A DNA stretch of 64,000 bases from Elusimicrobia bacterium HGW-Elusimicrobia-1 (GCA_002841695.1 PHAN01000002.1:90807-154806); one strand, 5' to 3'. Counted from the stretch's first letter, positions 36,393 to 64,000 are shown. The notes: generated by a model not told the origin, from the sequence alone. Program-made: numbers and translations.

Positions 36393-36465
36393 AAGCGGAG
36401 GTAAATGATAAATGGTGAATGGTGAAAAGGATAATGTCTCACTAAATAATGTGCGCTCCGTAAAG

Positions 36466-36545: not shown

Positions 36546-36572
36546 ACCAAAATAGGAAGTAAGAGGCAAAAT

Positions 36573-39947: not shown

Positions 39948-40027
39948 AAATACCTCCCCCTTTGGAAAAGGAGGATTGAGGGGGAAATCGGCCTCCCCCT
40001 TTTTAAAGGGGGAAAGAGGGGGATTTT
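39948..40027. repeat. P1 palindromic element
   Basis: aaatacctcccccttttggaaaaggaggattgagggggaaatcggcctccccctttttaaagggggaaagagggggatttt. Confidence 0.7.
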
Positions 40028-40383: not shown

Positions 40384-40462
40384 AAATCCCCCTGTGTCCC
40401 CCTTTAAAAAAGGGGGATTAAGACATTTCGTCGAGCTCCCCTTTTAAAAAGGGGGAATAGAA
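40383..40462. repeat. P1 palindromic element
   Basis: aaaaatccccctgtgtccccctttaaaaaagggggattaag...gctccccttttaaaaagggggaat. Confidence 0.7.
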
Positions 40463-47912: not shown

Positions 47913-47932
47913 ACTTTTGATTGGAGGAAAAA

Positions 47933-48883
47933 ATGAAAAAATTCTCATCGACAGGGTCATTGTTTATTCTCTTGTTTATCGTTTTTACTATCCACTACCC
48001 ACTAACCACTAACCACTGTCTTTACGCCGCCGGTCTCTCGTCTCCCAACGCCTCGATGTATCTGGGTAACCTTAAAATCGGCCAGACGTATTCACTCAGA
48101 CAACTGCTGGGCTACCCATTCAAAGCCACCTACAAAGGACGCTCAATGGCCGACCTGTCCATAAGCGTGATCGCGCTGTCCACCGCGACATCCGACGGAT
48201 ACGAACCCATCCCGTCCAACGACTGGATAGAAATCGAACGCTCGCATTTCTCTCTCGATCCGGGCCAGACCGCCGAAACCGACATCCTCATAAAAATCCC
48301 CGACGACACCGCGCATCTTGACAAAAAATATATCGTCATAATACAGCCACAGTCGGGCGCGCCGCGCGCCAGCGGAGCGGGCATTGTTTTCGGCACGGCG
48401 CTCAGGTGCCAGTTGCGCCTCGACATAGCCGCGCTTCCTCCCACGCCGGACGAAATCCGGCAGTTACGGCGCCTTCGGCACGGACAGTCGGTCGGTGTGG
48501 TTGTGTCTCCGGAAAGAATTTTCGTAAACGAAATCGAGGCGGGAAAAAAGATAGACGTCAAAAAAACTTTCGGCGATGTTATAAAAATAGTGAACTCGTC
48601 GGATTTCGACGTAGAGGCCGTCATAGAGTCCGCCGACCCCGCCAAGTTCGGGATGTTCGCCCCGTCGGGTTATGAAACCGCCCCCGATCACAAATGGCTT
48701 GTGCCCGCAAAAAGAAAAATCAAGATTCAGAAAAACCGCATAGCCGAGGCGCCGGTTACCATAAACATTCCTTCCGGCCCGGAACACGAGGGGAAAAGCT
48801 ACTATTTCGCCATTGCCGTAACCGTCAAATCGCCCATAAGAGAAGTCAATCATCTGGTCAGATTCTTTGTGGATATGAAGTAG
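47933..48883 (+). CDS. Secreted protein A1 of duplicated two-gene cassette (unknown function)
   Basis: ATG 47933 with GGAGGA 5 nt upstream (track start 47921 is TTG); leader SLFILLFIVFTIHYPLTTNHCLYAA; paralogous to 51140..52039 (NLKIG, GYEPxP, HLxKKY, ISAPSGY shared). Confidence 0.7.
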   Translation: MKKFSSTGSLFILLFIVFTIHYPLTTNHCLYAAGLSSPNASMYLGNLKIGQTYSLRQLLGYPFKATYKGRSMADLSISVIALSTATSDGYEPIPSNDWIEIERSHFSLDPGQTAETDILIKIPDDTAHLDKKYIVIIQPQSGAPRASGAGIVFGTALRCQLRLDIAALPPTPDEIRQLRRLRHGQSVGVVVSPERIFVNEIEAGKKIDVKKTFGDVIKIVNSSDFDVEAVIESADPAKFGMFAPSGYETAPDHKWLVPAKRKIKIQKNRIAEAPVTINIPSGPEHEGKSYYFAIAVTVKSPIREVNHLVRFFVDMK

Positions 48884-48925
48884 CAGTGGTTAGTGAAATA
48901 AAAAAAAGTGGTTAGTGGATAGTAA
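48884..48925. repeat. P2 arm copy
   Basis: gcagtggttagtgaaataaaaaaaagtggttagtggatagt. Confidence 0.6.
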
Positions 48926-48948
48926 AAATGAAAAAGGGGGGGAATAGT

Positions 48949-49326
48949 ATGATAGGAGTTAGGAGTTATAAAGATTTAATAATCTGGCGAAAAAGTATGG
49001 AACTTGTAAAAATTGTGTACAAAGCGACCAGTAGTTTCCCGCAAAAAGAATTATTCGGATTGACAAATCAGATGAGAAGGGCAGCCGTATCGATACCTTC
49101 AAATATAGCGGAAGGGCAGGCCAGAAACCATACGAAAGAATTTGTGCAGTTTCTGTATCAGGCGTTGGGCTCCCTGGCGGAACTTGATACACAGGCAATA
49201 ATAGCCAAGGAACTGGGTTATCTAAAAGCAGTGGATAGTGGTGAGTGGATAGAAAGACAAACTGCCGAACTTCAAAAGATGACACACGGCCTACTCAAAA
49301 AACTAACCGCTATAGACAGTGGATAG
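48949..49326 (+). CDS. Four-helix-bundle protein (family formerly called 23S rRNA intervening-sequence protein)
   Basis: SYKDLIIWRKSMELVKIVYK...FGLTNQMRRAAVSIPSNIAEGQAR...ELDTQAIIAKELGYL; AT-rich; start at ATG 48949 after GGGGGG SD preferred over 48928. Confidence 0.8.
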   Translation: MIGVRSYKDLIIWRKSMELVKIVYKATSSFPQKELFGLTNQMRRAAVSIPSNIAEGQARNHTKEFVQFLYQALGSLAELDTQAIIAKELGYLKAVDSGEWIERQTAELQKMTHGLLKKLTAIDSG

Positions 49327-49410
49327 TGGCGAGTGGTTAGTGGATAGAAAGGGCAGTGGTTAGTTTTTTGTTTTTACTATCCACTATTCACTAACCACTA
49401 ACCACTGCCC
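49318..49410. repeat. P2 hairpin, terminator-like
   Basis: gggcagtggttagttttttgtttttactatccactattcactaaccactaaccactgccc (13-bp perfect outer stem). Confidence 0.7.
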
Positions 49411-49668
49411 CTAAAAAACCCTTGACTTTATATAATTATTTTGCTATATACTGTATATCAAACAGGAAGCATACTTCTTAATTTAACATCTTGAATAAAA
49501 TGAGACGTGGGTTGGCCCGCCGAAGAAGGGCAGGAGGTGAAAAAAGGTCGTATGATTCAATCTTTAAAAAGCAATAGAGAAAAAGAGCTCGCGGCGTCGG
49601 TGGTGACGGAGTGCGCACCGTCATCCGTGACAGGCGCGGGCAAAAATCAAAAGGAAGAGGGAGGATTT

Positions 49669-50349
49669 ATGAAGAAGCTATTTTTTATGCTTCTGGCCGC
49701 CTCCGTCGTGGGGCTTTTTGCCTCGACGGTAAAGGCAGCCGACTGGGACAACGCCTACGTCGTAGTGCGTTGCACGGTTAACGTGTCGGTTGATGTCGCC
49801 CCCACAGGCACAGACAACGCCTGGGTGCCATACATCAACGACGCGCCGGGTACCGGACCGTACAACGGCGGTGTCAATCAGATATATGTGTCGACGGGTG
49901 TGGCCGTGAGGAACACAAGTTCTGGTGCCATAACCAACTGGACGCTCCATTTGGTATCGACGCAGACCTATTCGGCTACGCCTGATATAGCCGATTTCGC
50001 CAACACGACGACCGCATATCCGGACTGGACGTACGGCAACAATCTTACGGCCAATGGCCCAAACAAGATTGTAATCGCCGCTGTTTTCAAGAGTAATCCC
50101 GCCGTCTTGGGCGATTACAACGACCTGGACGTGCTCTTCTCCACGGGCACGGTCTATAAGACAGGTTCGGCAGATTTAGGCCCCGCTGCCGACGAATATT
50201 TCGGCGCTGTAGCCAGCGGTAACAACCTGAATATGGTCGCGCCGACAGACACAAGGAACCTGTACTTCAGGGTTCTGACGCCCTCGGCCGTTACGGACAG
50301 TATGTATCGTAAGTTCGAGGTATTGGTCAAGGCCGGTTTAGGTCTATAA
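49669..50349 (+). CDS. Secreted protein B1 of duplicated cassette (beta-sandwich-like, unknown function)
   Basis: ATG 49669 after aaggaagagggagg; signal peptide MKKLFFMLLAASVVGLFASTVKA; paralog of 52272..52955 (AYVVVRCTVNV vs AYITLRCTATV; VRNTSSGAITNWTL vs VRNSGVGSIANWTL). Confidence 0.7.
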   Translation: MKKLFFMLLAASVVGLFASTVKAADWDNAYVVVRCTVNVSVDVAPTGTDNAWVPYINDAPGTGPYNGGVNQIYVSTGVAVRNTSSGAITNWTLHLVSTQTYSATPDIADFANTTTAYPDWTYGNNLTANGPNKIVIAAVFKSNPAVLGDYNDLDVLFSTGTVYKTGSADLGPAADEYFGAVASGNNLNMVAPTDTRNLYFRVLTPSAVTDSMYRKFEVLVKAGLGL

Positions 50350-50630
50350 AGATTAGTCACAGCAGTTTAAGGTCAGCGTAAGTTGGTCTTTGGTATCCCG
50401 CCGTAGTCCGGCGGGACTCCATAGGTTAACAAAATTACTCCCCGTAGAGGTAGACTTCCGTGTCCGCCATCATGGACGCGAATGTTTTCGGGTGTCATTT
50501 TCCCGAGACGTTTGCGACCCCGGAATTATCGGTGGCGCCGATGAAGTCGGCGCCCCATCTGTTTAAAGATTATTTTGCCGTCGCGGCTATGCGCCCGACG
50601 GCTTTTGTTTTTTATAGCCGAATAAACGAT

Positions 50631-51000
50631 TTTGCCGGCGGATGCGGTTGTCTATTCTCTACGGGGAGAAAAAACATCACCCATTCGCCGGCCTTCTTTT
50701 TTGCGGAGCGGAGGTCTATCTCTACGGGGAGAAACGCCTGCCGCTCCGCTTACTATTTTGCAGAAACGCGTCGGGAAAATCCCCCTGTATCCCCCTTTAA
50801 AAAGGGGGAATATCGCACCTCCCCCTTTGGAAAAGGGGGACTGAGGGGGATTTCAAAAAACCATTTTGCCGGCGGACCGGAAGTTTGCCTCTACGGGGAG
50901 TGCATCACTACCGGTCCCGCCGGCTTACTTTTTTTTGCGGACGGACACGAACGTCGAACCTCTACGGGGAGGCAGTACGCATCGCCCGTCCGCATCTTTT
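50631..51000 (+). repeat. Array of four ~70-bp hairpin units with conserved loop motif CTCTACGGGGAG and covarying stems, interrupted by a P1 element (50775-50853)
   Basis: Loops at 50657, 50721, 50890, 50961; stems gccggcg/cgccggc, gcggagcgg/ccgctccgc, gccggcggaccgg/ccggtcccgccggc, gcggacgg/ccgtccgc; each unit followed by a T run; reverse-complement motif ctccccgtagag at 50438. Confidence 0.7.
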
Positions 51001-51056
51001 TCGGGGGGCGTACGAGCCGCCCCTTCAACTATCGGGGGCGGACACGGTTGTCTATT

Positions 51057-51090
51057 ATCGGAGTTTATCCCCGCGAAGGCGGGGAGGGAG
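51057..51090 (+). promoter_or_regulatory. Conserved leader motif TCGGAGTTTATCC-hairpin-GGGAGGGAG, ~50 nt upstream of start codon
   Basis: tcggagtttatccccgcgaaggcggggagggag; copies at 56353-56384 and 58101-58136 with compensatory stem changes. Confidence 0.5.
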
Positions 51091-51139
51091 AAAAACACCG
51101 CCGCGTACCGCCCCCATATTTTCTTATCGGAGAAATATT

Positions 51140-52039
51140 ATGACTAAAAATGTTTTCACCCCGCTTGCTCTGCTGATTTTATCGGCATTTATTGCGCCGC
51201 GCGGTTTGGCGGCGGCCTCGATTGCCACCAATTACTCCGACGTTTACGTGGACAATCTTAAAATCGGCGGCTCCTACAATCTTACGGCCACCGCCAATTA
51301 TCCTATGTGGATATTGTGGAAAGGCGGCGACAGGGCGCTGATAAAAGTGACGCCGAAACTGCCTTTCAAGGAAGTTATGCGCGCGGGATACGAACCCGTG
51401 CCCGATATTTCGTGGATAACGGTTTCAAAAAAAGAGTTTGAACTGATGAGCGACGAAACGGCCAATATCGACGTAACGGTAAACGTGCCAAACGACCCGA
51501 AACATCTGGGCAAAAAATATCAGGCGCTCGTCGAGGTTTCGGCAAATCCGCCCAAGGGTTCGCCCGGCGTCTCGATTGCCCTTGCCGTAAACGGGAAGAT
51601 ACTTATGAGCGTGGCCGGCAAGCCGCCGACCGAAGAGGAATTGTCCGAATTAAGGCGCGAACGAATACGCGCAAGGCGGGGGGTGATCATTGAGCCGGAG
51701 CGGCTTGAGGCATCGGTAAAAGCGGGGGGCATCAACGCCGAATTAACGGCCGACGAACCGCTTAAAATTATCAATTCGTCGAGGGAAAAAGTGTCCGTGA
51801 CGATAGAATCCGTCGCGCCCGAAGTCGCCGGGATATCGGCGCCGTCGGGATATGCCAAGGGCGCGGCCAAGGACATAAGTTTTTCAAAGACGTCGGCGTC
51901 TCTTGAGCCGGACAAGATTGAAAATATCGGAGTGTTTCTCAGGAAAGTGCCGTCGGACAAGTCGTTTTATATTGTCAGAATAACCATAAAGTCGCAGACG
52001 CTTGAAGTCGCAAAATTCGTGAGGGTTTATGTCAACTGA
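51140..52039 (+). CDS. Secreted protein A2 of duplicated cassette (paralog of 47933..48883)
   Basis: ATG 51140 preferred over track start 50885, which lies in the repeat array; signal peptide MTKNVFTPLALLILSAFIAPRGLAAA. Confidence 0.7.
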   Translation: MTKNVFTPLALLILSAFIAPRGLAAASIATNYSDVYVDNLKIGGSYNLTATANYPMWILWKGGDRALIKVTPKLPFKEVMRAGYEPVPDISWITVSKKEFELMSDETANIDVTVNVPNDPKHLGKKYQALVEVSANPPKGSPGVSIALAVNGKILMSVAGKPPTEEELSELRRERIRARRGVIIEPERLEASVKAGGINAELTADEPLKIINSSREKVSVTIESVAPEVAGISAPSGYAKGAAKDISFSKTSASLEPDKIENIGVFLRKVPSDKSFYIVRITIKSQTLEVAKFVRVYVN

Positions 52040-52042
52040 GAA

Positions 52043-52162
52043 AAAGTGGGTAGTGGATAGTGACGAGTGGTTATGGGTAGTGGATAGTGGCGAGTGGTTA
52101 GTGGATAGAAAGGGCAGTGGTTAGTTTTTTGTTTTTACTATCCACTAATCACTATCCACTCT
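52043..52162. repeat. P2 hairpin cluster, terminator-like
   Basis: agtgggtagtggatagtgacgagtggttatgggtagtggatagtggcgagtggttagtggatagaaagggcagtggttagttttttgtttttactatccactaatcactatccact. Confidence 0.7.
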
Positions 52163-52271
52163 CTTTAAAGGAGGCAGTATGAACGGTTTAAGTCGTTTCA
52201 AAGATGTCCCGCAAACGGTGCGGGAAACAAAATCAAGTCCCCCGACGGAAACGCGGGGACAGGGAGGCAGT

Positions 52272-52955
52272 ATGTTTTACAAAGTGAAATCCCGCATAGC
52301 GGGATTCGGAAAGTTGTTGTTGTTATCGGCGGCAGCCGTTGGTCTGGGCGCCATTTCGGCGTCTCAGGCGCAAGCGGCCACGACCGCATCGGCGTATATC
52401 ACGCTGAGATGCACGGCCACCGTCGCCATAGAATTGTTCAGCGGCGGGTCACTTCCGACCTCCGCGACCTTCTATGATTTCGGCGAAGTCGGGGCCGCGG
52501 GCGTTTACGTCTCGGCTAATCCCGTGGGCGTAAGAAACAGCGGAGTGGGTTCCATAGCCAATTGGACGCTCGACATCACGGAAATTACGCAGGACGGCGG
52601 AGCCAGCGCGTGGGTCATAGGAAACACGCCGGGGCTTAACAGAATGACGCTTCACGCAAAGTTCTCGACGAACACGCTTACGTCAGGCGACTTTGATGTG
52701 GCGCTGGATACTGTTTCCACGACGGCTCAGGGCGCCAAGGCCTATCGCCTCGACGTGGTGAACGGCAGCCATTTCTATGACCAGATAGCATCTTATGTCG
52801 AGTCGTCATTCAGTCCCAACGCGTCCAAGGTGCTTCCGGCCAGCTATAGCGCGACGAAGTCCGAGCGTCATATGTGGCTCAAGCTCCAGACGCCTACGGC
52901 ATTTGAAAACGCCAACGCCCTTACAGCCATAACGCTGAGGGTCAGCGCTTACTAA
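52272..52955 (+). CDS. Secreted protein B2 of duplicated cassette (paralog of 49669..50349); alternative start ATG 52179
   Basis: GGGAGG before ATG 52272; signal peptide MFYKVKSRIAGFGKLLLLSAAAVGLGAISASQAQA. Confidence 0.65.
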   Translation: MFYKVKSRIAGFGKLLLLSAAAVGLGAISASQAQAATTASAYITLRCTATVAIELFSGGSLPTSATFYDFGEVGAAGVYVSANPVGVRNSGVGSIANWTLDITEITQDGGASAWVIGNTPGLNRMTLHAKFSTNTLTSGDFDVALDTVSTTAQGAKAYRLDVVNGSHFYDQIASYVESSFSPNASKVLPASYSATKSERHMWLKLQTPTAFENANALTAITLRVSAY

Positions 52956-53077: not shown

Positions 53078-56000
53078 GTGAAAAGGAATAAATCTCTTTC
53101 CACTATCTTCTTAAGAGCGCTGCTGACAGGGATTATAGCGGCTCACGGGGCTCCTATGCCCTCGATGCTGTACGCCGCCCCCGTTACGCTTCGCGGCTCA
53201 CCGCCTTACGCGGGACCGCCGAACAGAGTCACGTCCATCATCGCCGCTCCCGATTTTTCAGCGCCGGAAGCGGAGGGGAAAATAAAGTTGAACTGGACGG
53301 CTCCGTCGGACGCCGGAGGTCTGGACGTTTTCTCCTACATAGTCAAGTACGCGACTTTTTCCGTCGCGGATATGGGAGGGGACAAAGACGCCTGGTGGGA
53401 TCATCCGCAATGTATAACCGCCTTTGATCCGGAACTAAACGTTCGCTGGGGCAAAAAATCTCTCGTGTCGTCGCAAGGAAACGAAATAATATCGGTATCC
53501 GGCCTTGAATCCGGAACGTATTATTATTTCGCGGTCAAGTCCGTCGACAGATACCACAGATTCTCCGTCTGGGACATACCTTACGACGGTGTATCCTCGC
53601 AAAGCAACGCTTACGCCACCACTCCGCCGTGGCAGCCCTACATAGTCACAACGCTTGCGGCAGAACCTATGGCGGCAATAAGAGCGGCGGCAATGCTTGA
53701 ATGGTTCGCGCCTTTGTTTGTGGAGAATAATCCGCCTTACGAAATTCTTCCCGGTCACATAAAACAACTCGGACAGTACTGCATCCAGTATTCTACGGCG
53801 CCTCCGCCCGAGCCCGTCAACAGACCCAACCAGCCGAACAACTGGGCGGCTTCTCAAAGAATCATAGTATCCACACGCAACGTCCAATCGGGCGACCTGC
53901 AAAACTACGTCCTTACGGGACTCTCGCACAATACCACCTATTACGTCCATCTTTTCACCAAAAACGAATGGCCTAACAAGTGGTCTTATGCGTCATACCC
54001 AGTCACTACGGTGCGGCCTTACATAGACCTCTCGCCCGTGGACGATCTCGTCGCTACCGCGTCGGCGTCCGCCGACAACGATATAGCCAGTTTCGTCACG
54101 CTTTCGTGGGAAAATCCCGAAAACGAGCAGTTCTTCGCCGGCGCGCGCGTGGGATATTCCACGTCGTCGTATCCGTCATCGCCCGATTCCGGAAATTATT
54201 TTGATGTAGAACCTCTTGCGTCCGGCACATCCACCGACTACGCGCATATCCGTTTGCTGCCGCGGCATAATTATTATTACTCCGTTTGGGCGTACGACTC
54301 CAACCACTTCTACTCCTCGCCGCGCAATGCGCAAACGTTCACATCGTTCGATATAAATCCGCCCGCCGGCGTCAAAAATATAACGTCCTTCGTCGATGTT
54401 TCTACCGACGGAGACGAAGACGCCTATGCCATACGCCTGGCGTGGAGCGCGCCGGACGCATCGGCCGCTATGCTTTACAGGAATATCGACTTTGACAGAG
54501 TCAGGGTCTATGTCAGCACGACCTCGGCCGACCCCGCCGACCACGTGTATCTCTCGACGGCCTCCGCCTCCGAGACGGCGTTTATTCATTCAGGCGCGGC
54601 GCCCTACACGACATACTATTACTCGTTTGCGAGTGTAGACGCAATCTCAAACGAGCAGACGGCCGTAGAGCGCTCGACTCACTCGGTCTATATCTGCGAA
54701 GATCACGTGCCGCCGTCGGCTCCGACTATTGTAACCCATCTCTATACCGCTTCGCGCGAATACGCCGACGGCTGCAAAGTCGCGCTCACGTGGCGAGCTC
54801 CGCCGGAATCGCATTTTGCGCGTATAGTCGCCAGAATATCGCTCGACGGCTTCCCGCTGTCCGTTTCCGACGGCGACGCGCTTACGGAATGGACCGGACT
54901 GCCCGACGCGACCGGCTCCGCGGAATTTAAGCGGCTTGTATCGCTTACCACCAATTACATATCGCTGTTTGCCGTCGCCGAGCGCGGCGCGGCGTCGCGG
55001 CCGGCTAAGGTCGCGGTCTACACTGATATTCCGTGGACGGATACCGTCTCGCCGCACGTGCCGCGCGACGTCAGGATTTCGTCATCGCGCAGGGTTACGT
55101 GGAGCCCCGTGAAATACGACGCTAACCTGGCGGCCATACCCAACTATGCGACGCCGCGCACTGACCAGATTTACTTCTACGAAATCCTCAAATCTACGTC
55201 GATGAAAGGCCCCTGGATCGTCGGAGACAGAATGAATCCGTCGCTGACTTTCTGCGACATCGCCGCGGCGGCGACCGGATATTACAAGATACGGGCCGTC
55301 GACGCGGGACGCAACTGCGCCGACTCATACGCCTTCGACCTCGACGGCAACATATACGTCGCCGCGGGCGATTCAAGCTACGTGAAAGTGCCGGCGGACA
55401 TCGTTTCGTCCTTGCGCACGCCGTCGAATCCGGCCAAGGATTCGCATCTGCTTTCGCTTTCGCGCGTTCCCGCCGACGAGAAAGGCATAATCTATAAGTC
55501 CGTGGAGTTCCGCTCGTCGGCCATATCCGAGACGTCCGACGCTATGCGGCTCCAAGACGTCCCCGGGTTCTCTCTGGGCGCGCCCGGAGCGAAACTGGCG
55601 TTCAGCTATGATACGGACAGAGATTCCGTCGCCGTCGCCGCGCCCTCGCGCAAAGCGCCGTCGCGCCCGGAGATACAGTCGCAGCTCGGAGTGTTCTATT
55701 ACAACGGGGTCGAGTGGCAGAGGATAAATCTCTCGGCTGCCGCGCCCGACGGCTATGTTATCTCGTCCGTGCGGTTCGCGGGCAAATATCAACTCCGCCG
55801 CGCCGCCTCTACGGGCGAGTTCGCTTTCTACGATGCCGTCCCGCGAATCATCACGCCCAATAACGACGGTATCAACGACAGGGCGATGTTCCGCTTTGCC
55901 AATCCGCAGGGACGCTCGATTACGCTTAAAATTTACGACATCAATTCCGTTCTTGTAAGAGACATAGGCGAGACAACGGCCGCGTCGGACACGCCCGGCG

Positions 56001-56119
56001 AGCATATATTCTGGGACGGTCTCGACGACAACAATCGCATCGTCGCGCCCGGCGTCTATGTTTATCAGTTGGAACTTGAAGAAAAAATTATCAACGGCAC
56101 CATAGTGGTGGCCAGGTAA
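53078..56119 (+). CDS. Large FN3-containing surface protein with C-terminal FlgD-Ig/T9SS type-B-like domain (GTG start)
   Basis: 1013 aa; FN3 signatures GTYYYFAVKSVDRYHRFS, TTYYVHLFTKNEW; C-terminus RIITPNNDGINDRAMFRF...ITLKIYDINSVLVRDI...WDGLDDNNRIVAPGVYVYQL...TIVVAR. Confidence 0.75.
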   Translation: MKRNKSLSTIFLRALLTGIIAAHGAPMPSMLYAAPVTLRGSPPYAGPPNRVTSIIAAPDFSAPEAEGKIKLNWTAPSDAGGLDVFSYIVKYATFSVADMGGDKDAWWDHPQCITAFDPELNVRWGKKSLVSSQGNEIISVSGLESGTYYYFAVKSVDRYHRFSVWDIPYDGVSSQSNAYATTPPWQPYIVTTLAAEPMAAIRAAAMLEWFAPLFVENNPPYEILPGHIKQLGQYCIQYSTAPPPEPVNRPNQPNNWAASQRIIVSTRNVQSGDLQNYVLTGLSHNTTYYVHLFTKNEWPNKWSYASYPVTTVRPYIDLSPVDDLVATASASADNDIASFVTLSWENPENEQFFAGARVGYSTSSYPSSPDSGNYFDVEPLASGTSTDYAHIRLLPRHNYYYSVWAYDSNHFYSSPRNAQTFTSFDINPPAGVKNITSFVDVSTDGDEDAYAIRLAWSAPDASAAMLYRNIDFDRVRVYVSTTSADPADHVYLSTASASETAFIHSGAAPYTTYYYSFASVDAISNEQTAVERSTHSVYICEDHVPPSAPTIVTHLYTASREYADGCKVALTWRAPPESHFARIVARISLDGFPLSVSDGDALTEWTGLPDATGSAEFKRLVSLTTNYISLFAVAERGAASRPAKVAVYTDIPWTDTVSPHVPRDVRISSSRRVTWSPVKYDANLAAIPNYATPRTDQIYFYEILKSTSMKGPWIVGDRMNPSLTFCDIAAAATGYYKIRAVDAGRNCADSYAFDLDGNIYVAAGDSSYVKVPADIVSSLRTPSNPAKDSHLLSLSRVPADEKGIIYKSVEFRSSAISETSDAMRLQDVPGFSLGAPGAKLAFSYDTDRDSVAVAAPSRKAPSRPEIQSQLGVFYYNGVEWQRINLSAAAPDGYVISSVRFAGKYQLRRAASTGEFAFYDAVPRIITPNNDGINDRAMFRFANPQGRSITLKIYDINSVLVRDIGETTAASDTPGEHIFWDGLDDNNRIVAPGVYVYQLELEEKIINGTIVVAR

Positions 56120-56162
56120 AGATAAAGAAGTGAATAGTGATTAGTGGATAGTAAAAGAAAAA

Positions 56163-56274
56163 ACAAGAAGCAAGATAAACCGTCATTCTGAGCGAAGCGA
56201 AGAATCCTCGTCATCTTCCGGCGAAGAATCCTCGCCATACTCTAACAAGATCCTTCGCTTCGCTCAGGATGACA
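56163..56274. repeat. Palindromic element (gtcattctgagcgaagcgaag ... cttcgcttcgctcaggatgac)
   Basis: Near-identical copy at 58838-58957. Confidence 0.7.
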
Positions 56275-56352
56275 GATAACAAGAATTTTATGGACAATAA
56301 CAAATATATTTATCGGCGCGTCGCTTCATCGGCGGGCAAACCCAAGTCAATC

Positions 56353-56384
56353 TCGGAGTTTATCCCGCCACAGGCGGGAGGGAG
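56353..56384 (+). promoter_or_regulatory. Conserved leader motif (second copy)
   Basis: tcggagtttatcccgccacaggcgggagggag, 53 nt upstream of ATG 56437. Confidence 0.5.
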
Positions 56385-56436
56385 ATTCTCTGTTTTGTCC
56401 GCCGACGAGGCGATGCCGTCTTCAAAGGAGCATTTT

Positions 56437-58074
56437 ATGAATACACTTATTAAAATCATCAAAAAATTTCCGCCGCCGTCGTCATTGTTTATTCTCTTGT
56501 TTATCGTTTTTACTATTCACTATTCACTATCCACTATTCACCCTCTTTACGCCGCATTCGAGGATATTTCCGTCGGCGGACGTCCCGCGGCTTTTTCCGG
56601 CGCGTATACAGCGGTCGAAGGCGACGCGTATTCCATCTACTACAATCCCGCGGCGCTTGCGGGTATGGCAAGGGCCGAGTTCGGCGCGCAATATTCCAAA
56701 CTTCATACGGGGCTTACGGACGGTTCGGAACTCTCCAACGCTTTTTTCGGCGTGGCGCAGCCGCTTAAATTCGGCTCGGCCGATTACGGCACAATCGGCG
56801 CGGGATGGATAAGATTCGACCTTGCGGAACTTTATCAGGAAAATACTATAATCTTGTCCTGGGCGCGTGACATTGTAAAGAACAAACTTTCCTTCGGATT
56901 CGGCGCCAAAATGCTCTCTATTACCTACGGCGAAAACGACTACACCAAAAACGCCTTCGACAACGAGGGCAACACGACCGGCGCGGCGGACCCGCTTTTC
57001 AACTATGGCTATATCAAATCCGCCGCCGACTTCGACGCCGGAATAAGATACGCTTTCGCCAAAAATTACGCCGTGGCCGCCGTCGCGCAGAATCTGGCGG
57101 GCGCAAATATATCGCTCGTCAACGACCCCAATGTCGCGCTGCCGCGTCGTTACCGTTTCGGCCTTGCTCACACCGGCAAGGCCTACGCGCTTTCGGCCGA
57201 TGTCGCGGGCGCTTCGGACTCTTCGGTAGTGCGCGGAATGGTCGGCGTCGAAAAAAGTTTCGACTTCGGTGGCGCCCTGAGGGCCGGGCTGGGAATGGGC
57301 ACCGACGGATGGGCCAATATCGCCGGCGGTTTCGGATTCAAAGCCGACGCCCTCAGCTTCGATTACGGCCTCGCATGGCCGTTGTCGGGCATAAAGAACA
57401 CTTCAGGCAGTCACAGGGTCTCGGTGAATTTCAAATTCGGGCCCGTTATGCGCCACCCCGAATCCGACTCGGAAACGCAGGTGCGCCTGGCGCAGGAAAT
57501 TACCGCCCGCAAAGAGTACGAGCAGAAATACAGGGTGTCCGAGATAGAACTCGCCCGCGCTAGAGAAGAGATAAGACAGCTCAAAAATCAGATAGAGGAA
57601 TTGCTCAAGCGTCCGTCGGCTCCCATACCGGCGCCAAGAGAAATCGCGTCGCCCAAGCCGACGGTTACGGAGACGCCCGCGGCCGTCAAACCCGGCGTAA
57701 CGCCGGCCGCGCCCGCTATGCCCACCGATATCGACGCTTTGAGAGCCGCTTATGCCAAAGAATTCAACCAGTATCAGCGCGACGCTTCCAAAATGGATAT
57801 TAAGCAGCGCATCGCGGCGGTTGACGTCATAGTCGCGCGTTATCAGGGCAAGATAAAGATAACCGAAGCCGTCGACGAACAGATGATACTCAGGAATGAA
57901 TTCGCCGCGCAGACCAAGTTCTATAACGACGCGCTTACTTACTACAAACGTCTCGTACGGCAGGGTATATCCGTCGAGGAGCGCAAGGACATACTCAATC
58001 GCATGATAACCAAGTACCAGGTGCTCGGCGTCGATGTAACTGTCGCCAAAGAGGAGCTTAAGACGGTAAAATAA
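56437..58074 (+). CDS. Beta-barrel OMP (PorV/PorQ- or PorP/SprF-like) with C-terminal coiled-coil/Pro-rich extension
   Basis: ATG 56437 after aaaggag (track start 56269 lies in repeat); leader SLFILLFIVFTIHYSLSTIHPLYAA; motif GRPAAFSGAYTAVEGDAYSIYYNPAALAG; C-terminal EIELARAREEIRQLKNQIEELLKRPSAPIPAP. Confidence 0.6.
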   Translation: MNTLIKIIKKFPPPSSLFILLFIVFTIHYSLSTIHPLYAAFEDISVGGRPAAFSGAYTAVEGDAYSIYYNPAALAGMARAEFGAQYSKLHTGLTDGSELSNAFFGVAQPLKFGSADYGTIGAGWIRFDLAELYQENTIILSWARDIVKNKLSFGFGAKMLSITYGENDYTKNAFDNEGNTTGAADPLFNYGYIKSAADFDAGIRYAFAKNYAVAAVAQNLAGANISLVNDPNVALPRRYRFGLAHTGKAYALSADVAGASDSSVVRGMVGVEKSFDFGGALRAGLGMGTDGWANIAGGFGFKADALSFDYGLAWPLSGIKNTSGSHRVSVNFKFGPVMRHPESDSETQVRLAQEITARKEYEQKYRVSEIELARAREEIRQLKNQIEELLKRPSAPIPAPREIASPKPTVTETPAAVKPGVTPAAPAMPTDIDALRAAYAKEFNQYQRDASKMDIKQRIAAVDVIVARYQGKIKITEAVDEQMILRNEFAAQTKFYNDALTYYKRLVRQGISVEERKDILNRMITKYQVLGVDVTVAKEELKTVK

Positions 58075-58100
58075 TATATCGGCGGGACACGGGGTCTACA

Positions 58101-58136
58101 TCGGAGTTTATCCCGCCATAGGCGGGTGGGGGGAGG
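58101..58136 (+). promoter_or_regulatory. Conserved leader motif (third copy, diverged)
   Basis: tcggagtttatcccgccataggcgggtggggggagg. Confidence 0.4.
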
Positions 58137-58172
58137 AAAGAACACCCGCTGTCCCGCCGGAAAAGCAAATTA

Positions 58173-58268
58173 GAAATCCCCCTGTATCCCCCTTTTAAAA
58201 GGGGGGTTGAAAGAGATTGTCGGGTGAAGTTCATCCCCCTTTGAAAAAGGGGGAAAGAGGGGGATTTA
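58173..58268. repeat. P1 palindromic element
   Basis: gaaatccccctgtatcccccttttaaaaggggggttgaaag...catccccctttgaaaaagggggaaagagggggattt. Confidence 0.7.
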
Positions 58269-58336
58269 ATGTTGGCGGCTATATTCCGGATTTTTGTCAG
58301 GCGAATAAAGGTAATTTTATGATATGAGGCACAATT

Positions 58337-58702
58337 ATGAAAATAAATAAAACATTCTCAGCCGTAATGGCCGCGCTTGTCGCCTGCGCTTGTCTTGCCG
58401 CGCCGGCGCCGGCCGAGTTCCGTCTCGTCGATGTAAAGCCGCGCGTGCTTACGCCCGGCGGCTCGTCGGGTTTCAACGACCGCGTAATATTTTCTTTCGT
58501 CGAGCCGGACGAAAAGCTCACTTTAAGAATATTCACTCTCGACGGCAGAAAGATAGAGGAAATTGATTACGGCGCGGCCGGAACGGAACGTCTCGTCTGG
58601 AACGCCTGCGCCGCGGGGTCAATGGTGTCGCCCGGCGTTTATATTTATCAGCTTGAAGCCGACGGAAAAGTTTTTTCGGGGACATTGGTGGTGGCAAGAT
58701 AA
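58337..58702 (+). CDS. Small secreted protein consisting essentially of a FlgD-Ig/T9SS-like C-terminal domain
   Basis: Signal peptide MKINKTFSAVMAALVACACLAAPAPA; LTLRIFTLDGRKIEEI...WNACAAGSMVSPGVYIYQLEADGKVFSGTLVVAR. Confidence 0.65.
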   Translation: MKINKTFSAVMAALVACACLAAPAPAEFRLVDVKPRVLTPGGSSGFNDRVIFSFVEPDEKLTLRIFTLDGRKIEEIDYGAAGTERLVWNACAAGSMVSPGVYIYQLEADGKVFSGTLVVAR

Positions 58703-58705: not shown

Positions 58706-58957
58706 AAAGTGATTAGTGGCGAGTGGTTAGTGGTTAGTAAAAGAAAAAGCAAAATGTCATTCCCGCGCCGCGCCGTAGGCGATGCTCCGCAAATGCGGGG
58801 CTGTGGGAACGCGGAAATCCAGAGCAATTAAATAGAGTCAAGAAGCGAGAGTCAAGATAAATCGTCATTCTGAGCGCAGCGAAGAATCCCCGTCATATTC
58901 CGGCGGGGAATCCTCGCCATACTCTAAGAGGATCCTTCGCTTCGCTCAGGATGACAG
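58706..58957. repeat. Composite repeat: P2 arm, gtcattcccgcg palindrome, and gtcattctgagcg...cgctcaggatgaca palindrome
   Basis: agtgattagtggcgagtggttagtggttagt; gtcattcccgcgccg...ggaacgcggaaatccagag; gtcattctgagcgcagcgaagaatcc...ggatccttcgcttcgctcaggatgacag. Confidence 0.7.
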
Positions 58958-59013: not shown

Positions 59014-60459
59014 ATGAGAATACGCACACGACTTACTATTTCATTCGGGTTGTTCGTTGCGCTGGTGTGCTCTATCGCCGCCTTGAATCTTTATATGAGC
59101 GCGATTTTAAGAGACAAGCTGGACTCGAGCATTTCCTACGCCCAGGTACTGTCCTTCTGGCGCGAGACGGATTTTGCTTTTGCAAGGCAGCGCCGGACCA
59201 TAGATTATTACTTGATGTTCGCCACGCCCGCCGAGAAGGAATCGTTCAATACCCAGGGGTTGCTCATCGTAAGGAAAATCGATGAGTTTATAAATCTTAT
59301 AAGATTGTCGTCGGAGGCAAAAGACATAGCCGTCTGGCGCGACGCCTACCGTGATTATGCCGCCGCCGTGAACAGGATGTTCTCATCGCACACTCCGGAG
59401 GAAACTCCGATGAGATACTTTGAACAGCGCGTGGAACCGGCTATGAAAGCGCTCACCGATGATATAACCGGGCGCATAGACGACTACGCCATCCGCATAG
59501 ATTCAATAGAAAAGGATATCGCGGCGCGCACTCGCAAAAGTTTCATATTTTCCGTCATGGGAGGGCTCGCGGCGCTTTTTCTTGCCGCCTATCTGAGTGT
59601 CTCTCTATTCCGCTCGATTTCCGTGCCCATAAAAACTCTGGAAGACGGCGCCCGCTTGATAGGTTCCGGAGACCTTACGCACACCATTATTCTTAAGCGC
59701 GCCCCGCCGGAACTCAAAACCCTCGCGGATAATTTTAATTCTATGGTCTCGAACCTCGCCAAACTTCAGCTGCAAGTAGTGCAAATGGACAGGATGTCGT
59801 CGATAGGTCAATTATCCGGAGGCGTTGCGCACGAAATAAATAACCCGCTTACAGGTGTGCTGGGGCAGGCGCAGCTTTTGCTTGAAAAACTGCCCGAGGA
59901 CTCGCTCTACCGCAGTCACATCGTTAAAATAGAATCGGCGGCGCAGCGGTGCCGCAAGATAGTCCGCTCTCTTCTGGATTTCTCGCGCGACAAGGACTAC
60001 AACTTCGCCCCGACGGACATCAATCAGATAATCGAAGAAACGTTGGACCTTTTGTCCAGCGAATTGCAGTCAAAGAGCATAATCGTCAAAAAAGACCTTA
60101 AGCCGGTGCCCAAAGTCATGGCTTCGCCGTCGCATATGCATCAGGTGGCGCTCAACATAATGACCAACGCCACTCAGGCCATGAAAACCGGAAACGGTAC
60201 GCTTTTCGTATCGACCTATCGCAGCGGACAGGAAGTCGCGATATCGATAAAAGACACGGGAATCGGCATCAAAAAGGAACATATCAATCATATATTCGAC
60301 CCGTTTTTTACGACTAAAGACATAGGCCAGGGAACCGGCCTCGGTCTTACGATTTGTTACGGCATAATTCAAAAGCACAGTGGCTCAATTACGGCGTCAA
60401 GCCCGGGAGAGGGAAAGGGAACGGAGATAATTATTCGTTTGCCGATCGCCAAAATATGA
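59014..60459 (+). CDS. Sensor histidine kinase (TM sensor region, HAMP-like linker, HisKA, HATPase_c)
   Basis: H-box SGGVAHEINNPLTGVLGQAQLL; ATPase motifs NIMTNATQAM, DTGIGI, GTGLGLTICYGII. Confidence 0.85.
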   Translation: MRIRTRLTISFGLFVALVCSIAALNLYMSAILRDKLDSSISYAQVLSFWRETDFAFARQRRTIDYYLMFATPAEKESFNTQGLLIVRKIDEFINLIRLSSEAKDIAVWRDAYRDYAAAVNRMFSSHTPEETPMRYFEQRVEPAMKALTDDITGRIDDYAIRIDSIEKDIAARTRKSFIFSVMGGLAALFLAAYLSVSLFRSISVPIKTLEDGARLIGSGDLTHTIILKRAPPELKTLADNFNSMVSNLAKLQLQVVQMDRMSSIGQLSGGVAHEINNPLTGVLGQAQLLLEKLPEDSLYRSHIVKIESAAQRCRKIVRSLLDFSRDKDYNFAPTDINQIIEETLDLLSSELQSKSIIVKKDLKPVPKVMASPSHMHQVALNIMTNATQAMKTGNGTLFVSTYRSGQEVAISIKDTGIGIKKEHINHIFDPFFTTKDIGQGTGLGLTICYGIIQKHSGSITASSPGEGKGTEIIIRLPIAKI

Positions 60460-60824
60460 AAAGAATAGTGATAGTCGAGGACGATGCCGACGTCGCCGAG
60501 GTTGTAAAAGTCATAGCCGAAAAACTCGGCTTTGAGTACGCGCTTTTCGGCGAGCCCGTTCCGGCCGTGGAGTTCATAAAAAAAACGCTTCCGGATCTCG
60601 TGCTTCTCGACATTATGATGCCCGGAGAAATAAACGGATTTGAAGTGGCCAGAACGCTTCGCGCCGGAGCCCTTACCCGCAAGATTCCCATACTTGCCAT
60701 GTCCGGCTATGATTCCCAGCAAACGCAGTCGCGCATATTTTCCGCCGGCGCCGACGATTATATAGCCAAACCTTTCGACTTGAAGGATTTGGAAAAACGC
60801 ATAAAGTCGCTGACGGGCGCCTGA
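60456..60824 (+). CDS. Single-domain CheY-like response regulator, translationally coupled to the kinase (ATGA overlap)
   Basis: MKRIVIVEDDADVAEV...DLVLLDIMMPGEINGFEV...ILAMSGYD...GADDYIAKPF; track start 60354 rejected in favour of ATG 60456. Confidence 0.8.
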   Translation: MKRIVIVEDDADVAEVVKVIAEKLGFEYALFGEPVPAVEFIKKTLPDLVLLDIMMPGEINGFEVARTLRAGALTRKIPILAMSGYDSQQTQSRIFSAGADDYIAKPFDLKDLEKRIKSLTGA

Positions 60825-60892: not shown

Positions 60893-63800
60893 ATGCCCTT
60901 GACAAGACCTCAATTATCGAGGTGGGTATTCGCCTCGGCCGCCGTATTTCTGGCGGCCCTCGCGCTCGCCATTCCGTCATATGCCGATTTCTGGACGGAA
61001 AACTCCGCTTCCGATTTCTCCAACGGATATTTCTCCCGCACCACTTCCACCGTAGCGTCGCCGCCGATACGGATCCAAAACGTCGCCGACTGGTACACAG
61101 TTCCCGGCAACACGTGGCAGGAAAGACAGCCCGTTAAAATAACCAACTCCGCCGGAGTACTCACCGAATATCAGCTTCAATTGACGCTGAACACCAAGGG
61201 TTACGTGGATTCGGCCAAATTGCGTTCCGACGGCGCGGATTTAAGAGTAACGGATTCCGACGGCGTAACGCTGTTGCCCTATTGGGTGGACACAAGCACT
61301 CCGATCAACGCCAACACCGCCGCGCCGATATGGGTCAGGATTCCGTCCGTCCCCGTAGGCGAGAAGACCATATATGTTTATTACAATAATTCCAGCACGG
61401 CCTCATCGCTTTCCAACCGTCATAATGTAGACGATTTCTACGAGGACTGGTCGAGCGCGGCCATAGACCCGGGCAAGTGGTCTATGGGCGGGCAGGCGCC
61501 TTTTCAGATTACGACATCATCGAAATACGCCGGCGCTTATTCGGTGCGGTCGGGCACCATAACGCACGGACAGGAATCCTACATACAATTCACGGTGAAT
61601 CCCGCCATGGCTGCCCGCGTCACTTTCTGGTGGGCCACTTCCTGCCAGCCCGAAATAAATTCCGACCGTCTGCGTTTCTATGTGAATAATATGGACTCGC
61701 ATATTTCACTCATAGGCGGTGAAATACCGTGGACGCAAACCACGCAGAACCTTGCCGCGGCGCCGAATACCATCCGGTGGAAATACAACAAGAACACCGA
61801 CGGAATAAGCACAGGGCTTGACCGCGGATGGGTCGATTTCATTTCCGTGCGCAAATATACCGCTTCGCCGCCCACACTCGACTACTCTCAGTCGCCGGAA
61901 ATCGTGGGCTACGAGTATTACTTCGACGGATATTATCTTTCCGAAGTAAAAGATCTCGGCGGCGAGAATACCCACATCAACAGCGCCTCATGGACGGTCA
62001 CGACCCCCGCCGGGACGTCGGCCAATATTCAGTACAGGCGATCCAATTATTCGTTCAGTTTGCAGAGTTCAACGCCCACGCCGTGGACGGCTTTAAGTAA
62101 CGGCGCGCCGCTTACAAATATTCAGGGACGCTACCTTCAATATCGCGCCGACCTCTCGGGACCGGGCACGACTTCGCCGGCTCTTGTGGAAATATCCGTG
62201 GATCACAGCCCTGTGCCGCAGAGGCCTTCGGGCTTCCGCGGGACGGCGGTTTCCTCGACGGTAATTCACTGGGAATGGTCGGATAATTCAAGCAACGAAA
62301 CGGGTTACAGAATATACTCGGGAACGGTTTCCGTGCCCGCCGAGGGTTATGTGTCTTCGCTTACGGGAATGCTCTGCGAACTTGGGGCAGACGCCACTTT
62401 CTACACGGAGCATAACCTGTCGCCCAATATACTCTATAACAGGTACGCAGTGGCATATAGCGCCAACGGCGGCAACGCGTCGAGCCGCTCGTCGGACTCT
62501 CGGCTGCTTCCGGCGGGCGTAACGACCTATTCGCACGCGCCGGTTCCCGTGGCCGAGGAATTCGCTTTTCTGCCGGGTGCGGGCGTTCAGTATAACACTG
62601 TTCCGACGGAAACGGCGATTTATCAGTCGACGTTTATGTTCACGTCGGATATGTCGACTACATCCGTGGAGTACTACCGTTTTGTGTTCAGCACACAGCC
62701 CTCGCACTCGTGGGTTAATACCGAGACGGTGTGGATTCCGAATGTTTCCACGGTAACCCATCCCGACTCCGGCGATCTCCACATTAAAAAGGCAATGATA
62801 ATTCCGCAGGCGGGTTTCAACTCCGAGTCGTGGTATTTCCACGCGCGGACATACAACAAGGGCAATATCCCGTCGGGCATAAGCACGCTCGGACCGTTTT
62901 ACTACCGCGGCTCGCCTTCCGCCATAACGGACCTGACGGCCGTGCCGTCGCCCACGGACGAAGGCCGTGTGGTGCTCTCCTGGACGGCTCCGTCGGACAA
63001 CGCCGGAACGGCGCAACTGACAAACGGCCGTTTTGTAATCAAGCGTCGCGCCGACTTCCTCATAAACACCACAACGCAATTCGACGCGGCGGTTACAGTC
63101 GCCAATATTTCGACCACCGCTGCGGCGGGGCAGCTGCAGACCTATGTGGTTACGGGTTTGACCCCGGGCAGTATATGGGGCTTCTCCATAAGATCCGTCG
63201 ACTATCAGGGAAATTACTCGGATGTTTCCACGCATATTCTGGATTCCGCAAACACCAGAACCGCCGCCGCCAAAGTGGCAAAACTCGTATATGTCACGCC
63301 CGCCCGAACCGGCGAAGTGGGCAGCCCGATAGGTCCTATTACCGTCGAGGCCCGCGACGCTTCGGACAGAGTTTTGCGTCTGGACACCGCTCAAAACATC
63401 TCGCTTGTGACCGACTCTCCCGACGGAGAATTCTCGCTGTCGGGCGACGAAGGCAGCTTCGGAATAACATTCGTAAATATCGCGGCAGGTTCTTCGCAAC
63501 AGTCGTTCTTCTACAGGGACTTGCAGTCCGGCAACCCCACTATTACCGCAGACGAGTCCCCGTCCGCCGATTGGGCTTCGGCTCAGCAGCAGCAGACCAT
63601 CCTTCCGGCCAAGGCCATAAGGTATATGGTAACGCACGACGGCGCCGGAACCATAGGTATCGACGAGAATCTGACGATATACGCCAACGACGGTTACAAC
63701 GCCGGCAACATATCGGTGGAATACGAAGGCGGAATGATATCCACAACCACCTTCTCCGGAATGCAGGTCATTCCGTCCACGCATATGTACGCCTCCGCCG

Positions 63801-64000
63801 ACGCCGGCACAAAAAATTACACATTAAGAAATCTCTTCTACGCCGGTCCCGGCGTCGTGAACGTTTATGAGGCGATAGCACAGAATTACGTCGATGTATG
63901 GGCAGGCGCCGGCGGCCGCGCGTGGGCCGCTGCCGACGAAGGCATCATAAAGAAAACGGCCAACTCCGGCGGCGACTGGTTCGCGCAGCGGTACGCGGTG
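60893..64000 (+). CDS. Large secreted protein with DUF2341-like N-terminal domain (3' end beyond window)
   Basis: Manual translation from ATG 60893 in the frame that continues to the window end; no stop met in the ~1.2 kb translated by hand, remainder unchecked. Signal peptide MPLTRPQLSRWVFASAAVFLAALALAIPSYA; DUF2341-like TEYQLQLTLNT...LRVTDSDGVTLLPYWVD...IWVRIPSVPVGEKTIYVYYNN. Not in ORF track because no stop codon is reached. Confidence 0.55.
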   Translation, partial: MPLTRPQLSRWVFASAAVFLAALALAIPSYADFWTENSASDFSNGYFSRTTSTVASPPIRIQNVADWYTVPGNTWQERQPVKITNSAGVLTEYQLQLTLNTKGYVDSAKLRSDGADLRVTDSDGVTLLPYWVDTSTPINANTAAPIWVRIPSVPVGEKTIYVYYNNSSTASSLSNRHNVDDFYEDWSSAAIDPGKWSMGGQAPFQITTSSKYAGAYSVRSGTITHGQESYIQFTVNPAMAARVTFWWATSCQPEINSDRLRFYVNNMDSHISLIGGEIPWTQTTQNLAAAPNTIRWKYNKNTDGISTGLDRGWVDFISVRKYTASPPTLDYSQSPEIVGYEYYFDGYYLSEVKDLGGENTHINSASWTVTTPAGTSANIQYRRSNYSFSLQSSTPTPWTALSNGAPLTNIQGRYLQYRADLSGPGTTSPALVEISVDHSPVPQRPSGFRGTAVSSTVIHWEWSDNSSNETGYRIYSGTVSVPAEGYVSSLTGMLCELGADATFYTEHNLSPNILYNRYAVAYSANGGNASSRSSDSRLLPAGVTTYSHAPVPVAEEFAFLPGAGVQYNTVPTETAIYQSTFMFTSDMSTTSVEYYRFVFSTQPSHSWVNTETVWIPNVSTVTHPDSGDLHIKKAMIIPQAGFNSESWYFHARTYNKGNIPSGISTLGPFYYRGSPSAITDLTAVPSPTDEGRVVLSWTAPSDNAGTAQLTNGRFVIKRRADFLINTTTQFDAAVTVANISTTAAAGQLQTYVVTGLTPGSIWGFSIRSVDYQGNYSDVSTHILDSANTRTAAAKVAKLVYVTPARTGEVGSPIGPITVEARDASDRVLRLDTAQNISLVTDSPDGEFSLSGDEGSFGITFVNIAAGSSQQSFFYRDLQSGNPTITADESPSADWASAQQQQTILPAKAIRYMVTHDGAGTIGIDENLTIYANDGYNAGNISVEYEGGMISTTTFSGMQVIPSTHMYASADAGTKNYTLRNLFYAGPGVVNVYEAIAQNYVDVWAGAGGRAWAAADEGIIKKTANSGGDWFAQRYAV

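Follow-up and report, generated by a model that had tools for sequence, protein, structure and literature searches.

A cargo-less sorting-domain protein conserved beside an outer-membrane barrel and a sensor kinase in Elusimicrobiota: a candidate reporter of surface-protein export

The 64,000 nt stretch of DNA analysed here, hereafter 'the window', derives from 'Elusimicrobia bacterium HGW-Elusimicrobia-1' (GCA_002841695.1 PHAN01000002.1:90807-154806) and encodes a 121 aa protein, here termed the mini, consisting of a signal peptide followed directly by a C-terminal domain (CTD) of the type carried by type IX secretion system (T9SS) substrates. Its gene lies between those for a 1013 aa surface protein bearing a similar CTD, the 'cargo', and an outer-membrane barrel, its 'partner', on the 5' side, and those for a sensor histidine kinase and a response regulator on the 3' side (Table 1). 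This small gene is conserved under strong purifying selection and heads a conserved unit with the two signalling genes, which are predicted from gene spacing to be co-transcribed or translationally coupled with it. Rather than being the relic of a broken gene, it probably encodes a functional component, which may report on or tune the export of surface proteins.

A sorting domain directly behind a signal peptide

An initial annotation of the window, made by a model from the sequence, had described a signal peptide plus the same kind of CTD in a short gene following a cargo and outer-membrane partner. All three open reading frames (ORFs), of 1013, 601 and 121 aa, are indeed present, and the smallest is identical to the hypothetical protein CVU77_01505 ('Elusimicrobia bacterium HGW-Elusimicrobia-1'), which occurs in groundwater metagenomes, on contigs reaching 398 kb. 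Residues 1-26 of the mini form a signal peptide, comprised of the residues MKINK, a hydrophobic core, modelled by AlphaFold2 (AF2) as a helix at residues 6-18, and a cleavage site between APA and EF that is kept in orthologues as AxA followed by (E/A)F. The signal peptide contains a 'LVAC' sequence reminiscent of lipoproteins, but a lipoprotein was ruled out because the Cys residues of this region are not conserved among orthologues.

The remaining 95 residues (27-121) can be aligned over their full length with the C-terminal 105 residues of the 1013 aa cargo (36% identity, BLASTP E 5e-19), and also with the CTDs of 895 aa and 702 aa proteins. A scan of the window with the mini-family profile places the domain in five ORFs only, namely the mini and the 1013, 895, 702 and 369 aa proteins (the last at 22651-23760), thereby recovering the four cargo CTDs that the annotation had counted. 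Matches of the mini to curated models are weak, at 21.6 bits for TIGR04183 (cut-off 23) and 15 bits for FlgD_ig (cut-off 27), with no match to TIGR04131. The AF2 model, with a mean predicted local distance difference test score (pLDDT) of 88, is a seven-stranded Ig-like sandwich, for which Foldseek returns generic Ig-like folds, among them the T9SS CTDs of NucA (8glk_D), mirolase (8qb1) and RgpB (7pq4). By sequence, the best match in the PDB is the Ig-like domain of FlgD, followed by the CTDs of PorU, NucA, RgpB and PorZ. Residues I65, G70, W88, G100, Y102, Y104, G115 and V119 are invariant or nearly so in the family, and five of these (I65, W88, G100, Y102 and G115) are invariant in the cargo CTDs of the window as well. 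The domain can be placed in the T9SS-CTD/FlgD_ig superfamily, and stands alone behind a Sec signal peptide.

The top Foldseek match is the copper chaperone CopC (5icu, E 2.3e-4), which, with the FlgD sequence match and a gene position typical of a kinase's periplasmic accessory protein, would fit a protein unrelated to secretion: a periplasmic Ig-like ligand-binding co-sensor of the kinase, for example through CopC-like binding of metal, that shares only an ancient fold with CTDs. However, no His, Met or Cys is conserved in the family, in which the invariant positions are W88, Y102 and G115, and the mature protein contains 0 His, such that CopC-like metal binding was ruled out. A co-sensor of this kind would also have to account for the specific similarity to the CTD of the neighbouring cargo, the consistently terminal position of the domain and its persistent adjacency to PorV/PorP-like barrels, and is distinctly improbable.

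A family of proteins comprised of little but a CTD

An exhaustive profile search of 1.84 billion representative sequences gave 1137 hits at E <= 1e-3, of which 122 had E <= 1e-10. Among the best 150 of the 1137, the domain ends at the last or second-to-last residue in nearly all cases, the exceptions being three multi-repeat giants and one further protein (P0072; such labels, like L007 for loci, are those of the analysis). Within the same 150, 58 are at most 175 aa long; about 50 of these consist of a Met and a hydrophobic, signal-like segment directly before the domain, and about seven resemble 5' fragments of long proteins. The search thus shows a sizeable family of predicted proteins consisting only of signal peptide and CTD. 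At the family level, with matches counted at E <= 0.01, 41 of 47 members match the type A model TIGR04183, 27 match the type B model TIGR04131, 38 match CHU_C and 30 match FlgD_ig, and the CTD scores about equally on models of type A and type B.

Every mini whose source is named comes from Elusimicrobiota, and two have been given the name 'gliding motility-associated C-terminal domain-containing protein' by NCBI. A complete module of the Elusimicrobiota type is also carried by a contig labelled 'Ignavibacteria bacterium' (L013, JBGFRZ010000048.1), with a cargo orthologue scoring 1124 bits, a label reflecting either mis-binning or lateral transfer. No description of cargo-less, CTD-only proteins was found in the literature; such short genes deserve annotation as genes, not dismissal as fragments.

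A conserved gene rather than a remnant

A remnant of a deleted cargo was among the origins envisaged in the initial annotation, and the mini does correspond to only the terminal domain of its larger neighbours. Three close orthologues, with 83, 78 and 61% identity, are nevertheless 120-121 aa long and lie in the same synteny, while more distant orthologues identified by synteny (P0005, P0008, P0009, P0010 and the minis of L014, L031 and L034) measure 118-139 aa. The same range holds across 12 distinct kinase-linked lineages and five further subfamilies, with no longer orthologue in the 12, save that the start of the L013 mini is uncertain and its ORF could extend to at most 187 aa. By the Nei-Gojobori method, dN/dS for the mature protein is 0.07-0.13, rising to 0.30 for the closest pair; the signal peptide is less constrained (0.16-0.43). 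A neighbour-joining tree of CTDs, indicative only owing to the shortness of the sequences, puts the cargo CTDs in one clade and the minis of the window, L007, L008, L010, L011 and L013 in another, which makes the mini of the window an old paralogue rather than a recent truncation of its neighbour. The constant length, the presence of its own signal peptide, dN/dS of about 0.1 and grouping with other minis, and not with the CTD of its own cargo, refute a remnant or spurious ORF, which is so improbable that it can be set aside: the mini is a conserved gene under strong purifying selection.

Locus L009 (GCA_017973855.1) illustrates how the gene can vary. Its flanks are 97-100% identical to the window at the nucleotide level, but approximately 120 nt of the mini differ sharply and match the allele of L007, making it a recombinant mosaic at the most variable part of the gene (Table 1). 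Since the tract is simply an L007-like allele, it arose by recombination; a diversity-generating retroelement was considered as its source and ruled out on these grounds, no reverse transcriptase having been seen. A gene for a 23S_rRNA_IVP/bAvd-like four-helix bundle does lie within the surface-protein cluster (window 48928-49326; L007 19196-19552), at a position that varies by strain; no reverse transcriptase was seen near it.

Linkage to a sensor kinase and a response regulator

The genes of the window run in the order cargo (~1000 aa), tailed barrel (520-600 aa), mini, HAMP/HisKA kinase, receiver-only regulator and 2270 aa giant. Among the related loci, which include those from searches with one or two peptide patterns (14 and 13 loci), this order recurs in L007, L008, L009 (partial), L011/12, L013, L014, L028-30, L031 and L034. 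An orthologous HAMP/HisKA kinase is found directly 3' of 12 distinct minis, but never 3' of the cargo genes that carry the same CTD. The gap between mini and kinase is -52 to 33 nt in eight lineages, exemplified by a 4 nt overlap in L028 and a 4 nt gap in L008, and 99-311 nt in the other four. Even where the cargo and partner pair is absent or displaced, in L010 and L027, the mini is still followed, after 9 and 24 nt, by the kinase and regulator. A Shine-Dalgarno sequence, GAGG, precedes the start of the mini by 7-8 nt, and is present in most orthologues too. As judged from this arrangement, the mini heads a conserved mini-kinase-regulator unit that is predicted to be co-transcribed or translationally coupled.

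The periplasmic domain of the kinase, for which no informative solved relative was found, diverges much faster than HisKA: identity in the more distant orthologues is 13-49%, against 68-95%. An exploratory mirror-tree analysis of nine loci, in which the cytoplasmic domain of the kinase served as an imperfect control, found that the mini diverges in step with the periplasmic domain of the kinase (partial r 0.57, p 0.001 by permutation) and with the partner barrel (partial r 0.55, p 0.0085), but not with the partner tail (partial r -0.02, p 0.52). The initial annotation had listed regulation of secretion as a possible role, and the conserved linkage to kinase and regulator, which it had missed, favours that direction, although the binding on which such regulation would depend is something we infer.

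Alternatively, as the initial annotation had also suggested, the mini could act as a decoy, competing with the CTDs of large cargos for the shuttle or translocon and so throttling export, with the kinase setting the amount of competitor. The mini retains the five motif regions common to the cargo CTDs, and its gene shares a locus with those of two large cargos bearing CTDs and of their shuttle. Yet minis of the clade to which the window belongs have a degenerate motif-A loop, with TPGGSSGFND or TAGRADGFND in place of TPNGDGxND. Secretion requires five conserved CTD motifs, and in Flavobacterium johnsoniae each type-B motif is needed for it (PMC12618676). Furthermore, the mini lies upstream of the kinase and not downstream of a promoter controlled by the regulator, and there is no precedent for a CTD decoy, so we regard this role as unlikely.

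Association with tailed barrels

The partner probably begins at the internal start that yields 545 aa, rather than the 601 aa of the full ORF, because the hairpin of a repeat element overlaps the first 56 codons of the longer form and other gene callers begin at the internal position. Its AF2 model, built from database homologues (pLDDT 75), comprises a barrel of about 14 strands (approximately residues 80-334) and, behind it, a tail in which a 48-residue helix leads through a disordered Pro-rich linker to a helical bundle; the topology of FadL and PorV would place this tail in the periplasm. Foldseek ranks FadL first (E 2e-10) and chain F of the T9SS complex 8gl6 sixth (E 3e-9). The match to the NCBIfam model PorV_fam is 36.4 bits against a cut-off of 90 (35.8 bits for the 601 aa form), and among 14 family members 13 match PorV_fam and 11 PorP/SprF, below cut-off, while 13 match PorV2 and 12 TraF_2, with some members possessing tetratricopeptide repeat (TPR) tails. 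A homologue with 75% identity has been named PorP/SprF by NCBI.

Cargo orthologues of 997-1236 aa occupy the same position in L007, L011, L013, L014, L028 and L031, and in these loci, the window and L033 the barrel gene is directly 3' of a cargo with a type-B CTD. As a rule, PorV/PorP-SprF-type barrels are encoded directly 3' of such cargos (PMC12618676). The cargo itself matches fn3 domains at 34.7 bits, and its terminal domain falls just under curated cut-offs (CHU_C 25.6 against 27 bits, TIGR04131 19.8 against 35 bits).

In nearly every lineage the mini is adjoined by a barrel with a helical periplasmic tail, 520-700 aa long in total. Five mini subfamilies have an adjoining barrel and no adjoining kinase, which makes the link to the barrel general and that to the kinase clade-specific, but very tight. 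Gene order varies among these: the mini precedes the barrel with a 4 nt overlap in L015, lies between a cargo and a barrel with a PorP_SprF match in L046/47, and between a giant and a barrel-TPR protein in L048, while in L043/44 and L045 the barrel adjoins the mini. In one further case the two are joined: P0048 (681 aa) consists of a partner with its tail (residues 1-522, E 5e-59), a Pro/Ala-rich linker and a mini (residues 590-681, 41% identity).

These associations could also be explained if the role of the mini were purely structural, with the protein permanently occupying the PorV/PorP-like barrel as a plug, cap or minimal surface subunit, and the two-component system only regulating the locus. 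Adjacency to the partner is the most general linkage, seen in all mini subfamilies and in three gene orders; the P0048 fusion and the co-variation of mini and barrel point the same way; and CTDs are known to bind PorV-family barrels stably (PMC9143113), an uncleaved CTD remaining on such a barrel in a stable outer-membrane complex (PMC12365241). By contrast, a structural role leaves unexplained both the co-variation with the kinase sensor domain and the close spacing of mini and kinase in L010 and L027, which lack an adjacent partner, and the existence of cargo and barrel pairs without a mini, in L033 and at 9528-15414 of the window, means that the barrel needs none. Such a plug or cap is the main rival to the signalling role set out below, and is possible, though on balance unlikely.

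Two observations on the wider occurrence of barrels may be added. The pair at 9528-15414 is part of a second sorting module, comprised of the 895 aa CTD protein, a bona fide PorV/PorQ-family barrel (330 aa, 12258-13250, 149.5 bits) and the 702 aa CTD protein, without a mini or an adjoining kinase; the 369 aa CTD protein likewise stands alone, lacking either. Of the T9SS machinery, with its translocon, motor, ring and sortase (SprA/Sov, PorK/L/M/N, PorU), the window showed PorV/PorQ-family barrels only, namely this one and the weakly matching partner. Secondly, the L048 locus (8001-16399; Elusimicrobia, RIFOXYA12-like) encodes a 5954 aa giant with its own CTD, the mini, the barrel-TPR protein and then a stator-like module, consisting of a 473 aa FliG_C-domain protein, a MotA/ExbB channel, two OmpA/MotB-like proteins, a 692 aa protein and a PorV homologue, which might be the energy source of the sorting system.

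A possible reporter of export

The closest model for a signalling role is PorA of Porphyromonas gingivalis, the smallest type-A cargo, of which a PorV-bound full-length form exists. Its CTD, which must contain at least six basic residues for activity, binds both the kinase PorY and PorV, and the C-terminal 69 residues are sufficient to activate PorXY-SigP; PorA has been proposed, by accumulating in the periplasm, to report impairment of the T9SS, tying gene expression to the state of secretion (PMC12152298, PMC7712824). By analogy, we tentatively propose, as a reading that falls just short of probable, that the mini, free of any cargo, serves the neighbouring barrel as substrate or ligand, and that a periplasmic pool of it is read by the putatively co-transcribed kinase. 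After export by Sec, the PorV/PorP-like barrel would recognise the mini just as it would the CTD of the 1013 aa cargo encoded next to it, and would then either bind it or carry it out. The fraction retained in the periplasm would contact the helical periplasmic domain of the downstream kinase, through which the kinase and receiver pair could sense how well CTD-dependent export is running and adjust the production or export of the giant surface proteins encoded on either side. The logic would be that proposed for PorA, pared down to a bare CTD and built into a single locus.

Several points weigh against this proposal. Each of its mechanistic steps is drawn by analogy, and the mature mini, although it has 11 Lys and Arg residues against the six or more basic residues needed in the PorA CTD, is acidic overall (pI 5.0). 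The regulator has only a receiver domain. The spacer between mini and kinase in the window is 311 nt, which the insertion of repetitive extragenic palindromic (REP)-like elements explains in part. As the kinase is adjacent in one clade only, signalling can be neither the ancestral nor the sole role of these proteins. The mirror-tree analysis covered few loci and had an imperfect control. The P0048 fusion is weak evidence, known from one sequence only (a Logan contig of 19,981 bp) and with unfused nearest relatives, and could represent either a real fusion or a lost stop codon.

CTDs are regarded as secretion tags, and a CTD was proposed as a signalling ligand only in 2025, for one protein of one species; a conserved CTD-only family fixed beside a kinase and a PorV/PorP-like barrel lends that idea independent support at the genomic level and brings it within reach of a direct test on three small proteins. 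The literature treats T9SS as specific to Bacteroidota or, at most, as found across the Fibrobacteres-Chlorobi-Bacteroidetes (FCB) group (PMC12618676 among other sources), and nothing relevant on T9SS in Elusimicrobia or Elusimicrobiota was found in it; the locus documents sorting parts of this type, in the form of CTD cargos and shuttle-like barrels, outside that group. A bolder and doubtful extension is that Elusimicrobiota run a reduced CTD-sorting pathway on PorV/PorP-like barrels whose helical tails span the periplasm, possibly without the Bacteroidota translocon, in which a dedicated cargo-less CTD, as both barrel substrate and kinase ligand, serves as the reporter of flux. Were this so, the PorA-PorY principle would be ancient and general, not a peculiarity of P. 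gingivalis, and the locus would provide a minimal and compact model of it.

Other features of the window

Table 1. Features of the mini locus, in positions of the window
Feature	Position	Strand	Remark
Surface 'cargo', 1013 aa, with fn3 repeats between a signal peptide and a type-B-like sorting domain at the C-terminus (ITPNNDGINDRAMF ... GTIVVAR)	53078..56119	+	
REP-like palindromic repeat element in the cargo-partner spacer, overlapping the first ATG of the 601 aa ORF	56182..56273	.	4 arm copies in the window against 0 expected
Partner outer-membrane protein, 545 aa from its likely start; the ORF opens at 56269	56437..58074	+	FadL/PorV/PorP-like barrel
Hairpin repeats CCCCCTTT-N-AAAGGGGG, two copies, between the partner and mini genes	58187..58253	.	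20 matches against 0.01 expected, spread over 7 or more intergenic regions of the window
Promoter-like site TTGTCA-18-TATGAT (10/12), just 5' of the mini gene	58294..58323	+	Consensus match only
Mini-CTD gene, encoding 121 aa: aa 1-26 (nt 58337-58414) are the signal peptide, aa 27-121 a stand-alone 7-strand Ig-like sorting domain	58337..58702	+	
Mosaic tract within the mini gene: end of signal peptide, first strand and motif-A loop	58379..58498	+	L009 carries L007-like allele
The REP-like palindromic element again (second copy), between the mini and kinase genes	58864..58955	.	
Sensor histidine kinase, 481 aa: first transmembrane segment, ~140 aa helical periplasmic domain, second transmembrane segment, HAMP, HisKA, HATPase	59014..60459	+	
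Response regulator, 122 aa, receiver domain only	60456..60824	+	4 nt overlap with kinase stop
2267 aa surface protein, 5' part, running off the window: DUF2341, fn3, BNR/sortilin and FlgD_ig-type CTD	60893..64000	+	

Intergenic regions of the window harbour two kinds of palindromic repeat: a 92 nt hairpin, GTCATTCTGAGCG...CGCTCAGGATGAC, and the CCCCCTTT-N-AAAGGGGG hairpins. As well as the copies in Table 1, repeats are located at 6326, 7651-7704, 39956-40013, 40398-40455 and 50790-50839. They widen both spacers flanking the mini and yield spurious extensions of ORFs, as in the first 56 codons of the 601 aa ORF and the ORFs at 50460-51147. A gene for a Y1/IS200-like transposase, possibly a REP-associated tyrosine transposase (RAYT), is found at 9080-9538.

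The region 5' of the cargo (47921-52955) contains genes for secreted proteins of 226-320 aa, with conserved synteny and no family match. Two of its ORFs (49507-50349 and 52179-52955), a 2412 aa protein encoded in the region 40565-47803 and a 515 aa protein of L033 (4278-5825) share the end motif (W/Y)(L/F)(K/R)(L/V/I)xTP followed by about 20 residues, which may represent another class of signal for sorting or assembly at the C-terminus. The ORFs at 47921-48883 and 50885-52039 lack the motif and have a different C-terminus common to both. Elsewhere, regions 5-6298 and 30302-38960 contain a cluster of alpha-glucan enzymes, comprising homologues of a GH13-type amylase, a cyclomaltodextrinase and an alpha-glucosidase alongside a MalK/UgpC-like ABC ATPase, and also encode a protein that has an amylase-like domain and a length of 2097 aa or more, which suggests the use of starch or glycogen with giant surface enzymes.

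Comparison with known systems

The mini resembles PorA (PGN_0123) in being a small, Sec-exported protein, the active part of PorA being its CTD, and the PorA-PorV-PorY triad has an apparent counterpart in the combination of a CTD protein, a PorV/PorP-like barrel and a kinase with its regulator, here reduced and gathered into one putative operon. PorA, however, is 246 aa long and has a FimH-like N-terminal domain, whereas the 95 aa mature mini is all CTD and has no passenger. The porA, porV, porY and porX genes have widely separated locus numbers in P. gingivalis, while the parts are contiguous in the window; PorX has an effector domain, unlike the receiver-only regulator found here. The hosts also belong to different phyla, Bacteroidota and Elusimicrobiota.

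Similarly, the 1013 aa cargo, with its TPNxDGxND signature, and the FadL-type barrel that follows it, which matches PorP/SprF and PorV/PorQ models, recall the SprB/SprF and Fjoh_3952/3951 pairs. They differ in that the model scores lie under curated cut-offs, the CTD is intermediate in type (A or B), and those pairs have no described counterpart of the third gene, the mini. The barrel also carries a 200 aa helical or TPR periplasmic tail, and we know of no such tail in PorV or PorP.

The proposed association of CTD and barrel is also reminiscent of PorU-PorV and PorZ-PorQ, in which the uncleaved CTDs of PorU and PorZ remain bound to PorV and PorQ; those complexes anchor large functional proteins, and here nothing would be anchored. 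In concept, the mini may be likened to FlgM and ExsE, small substrates whose export or retention reports the activity of a machine, although these are cytoplasmic anti-activators exported by type III systems, rather than ligands of a periplasmic kinase domain as envisaged for the mini.

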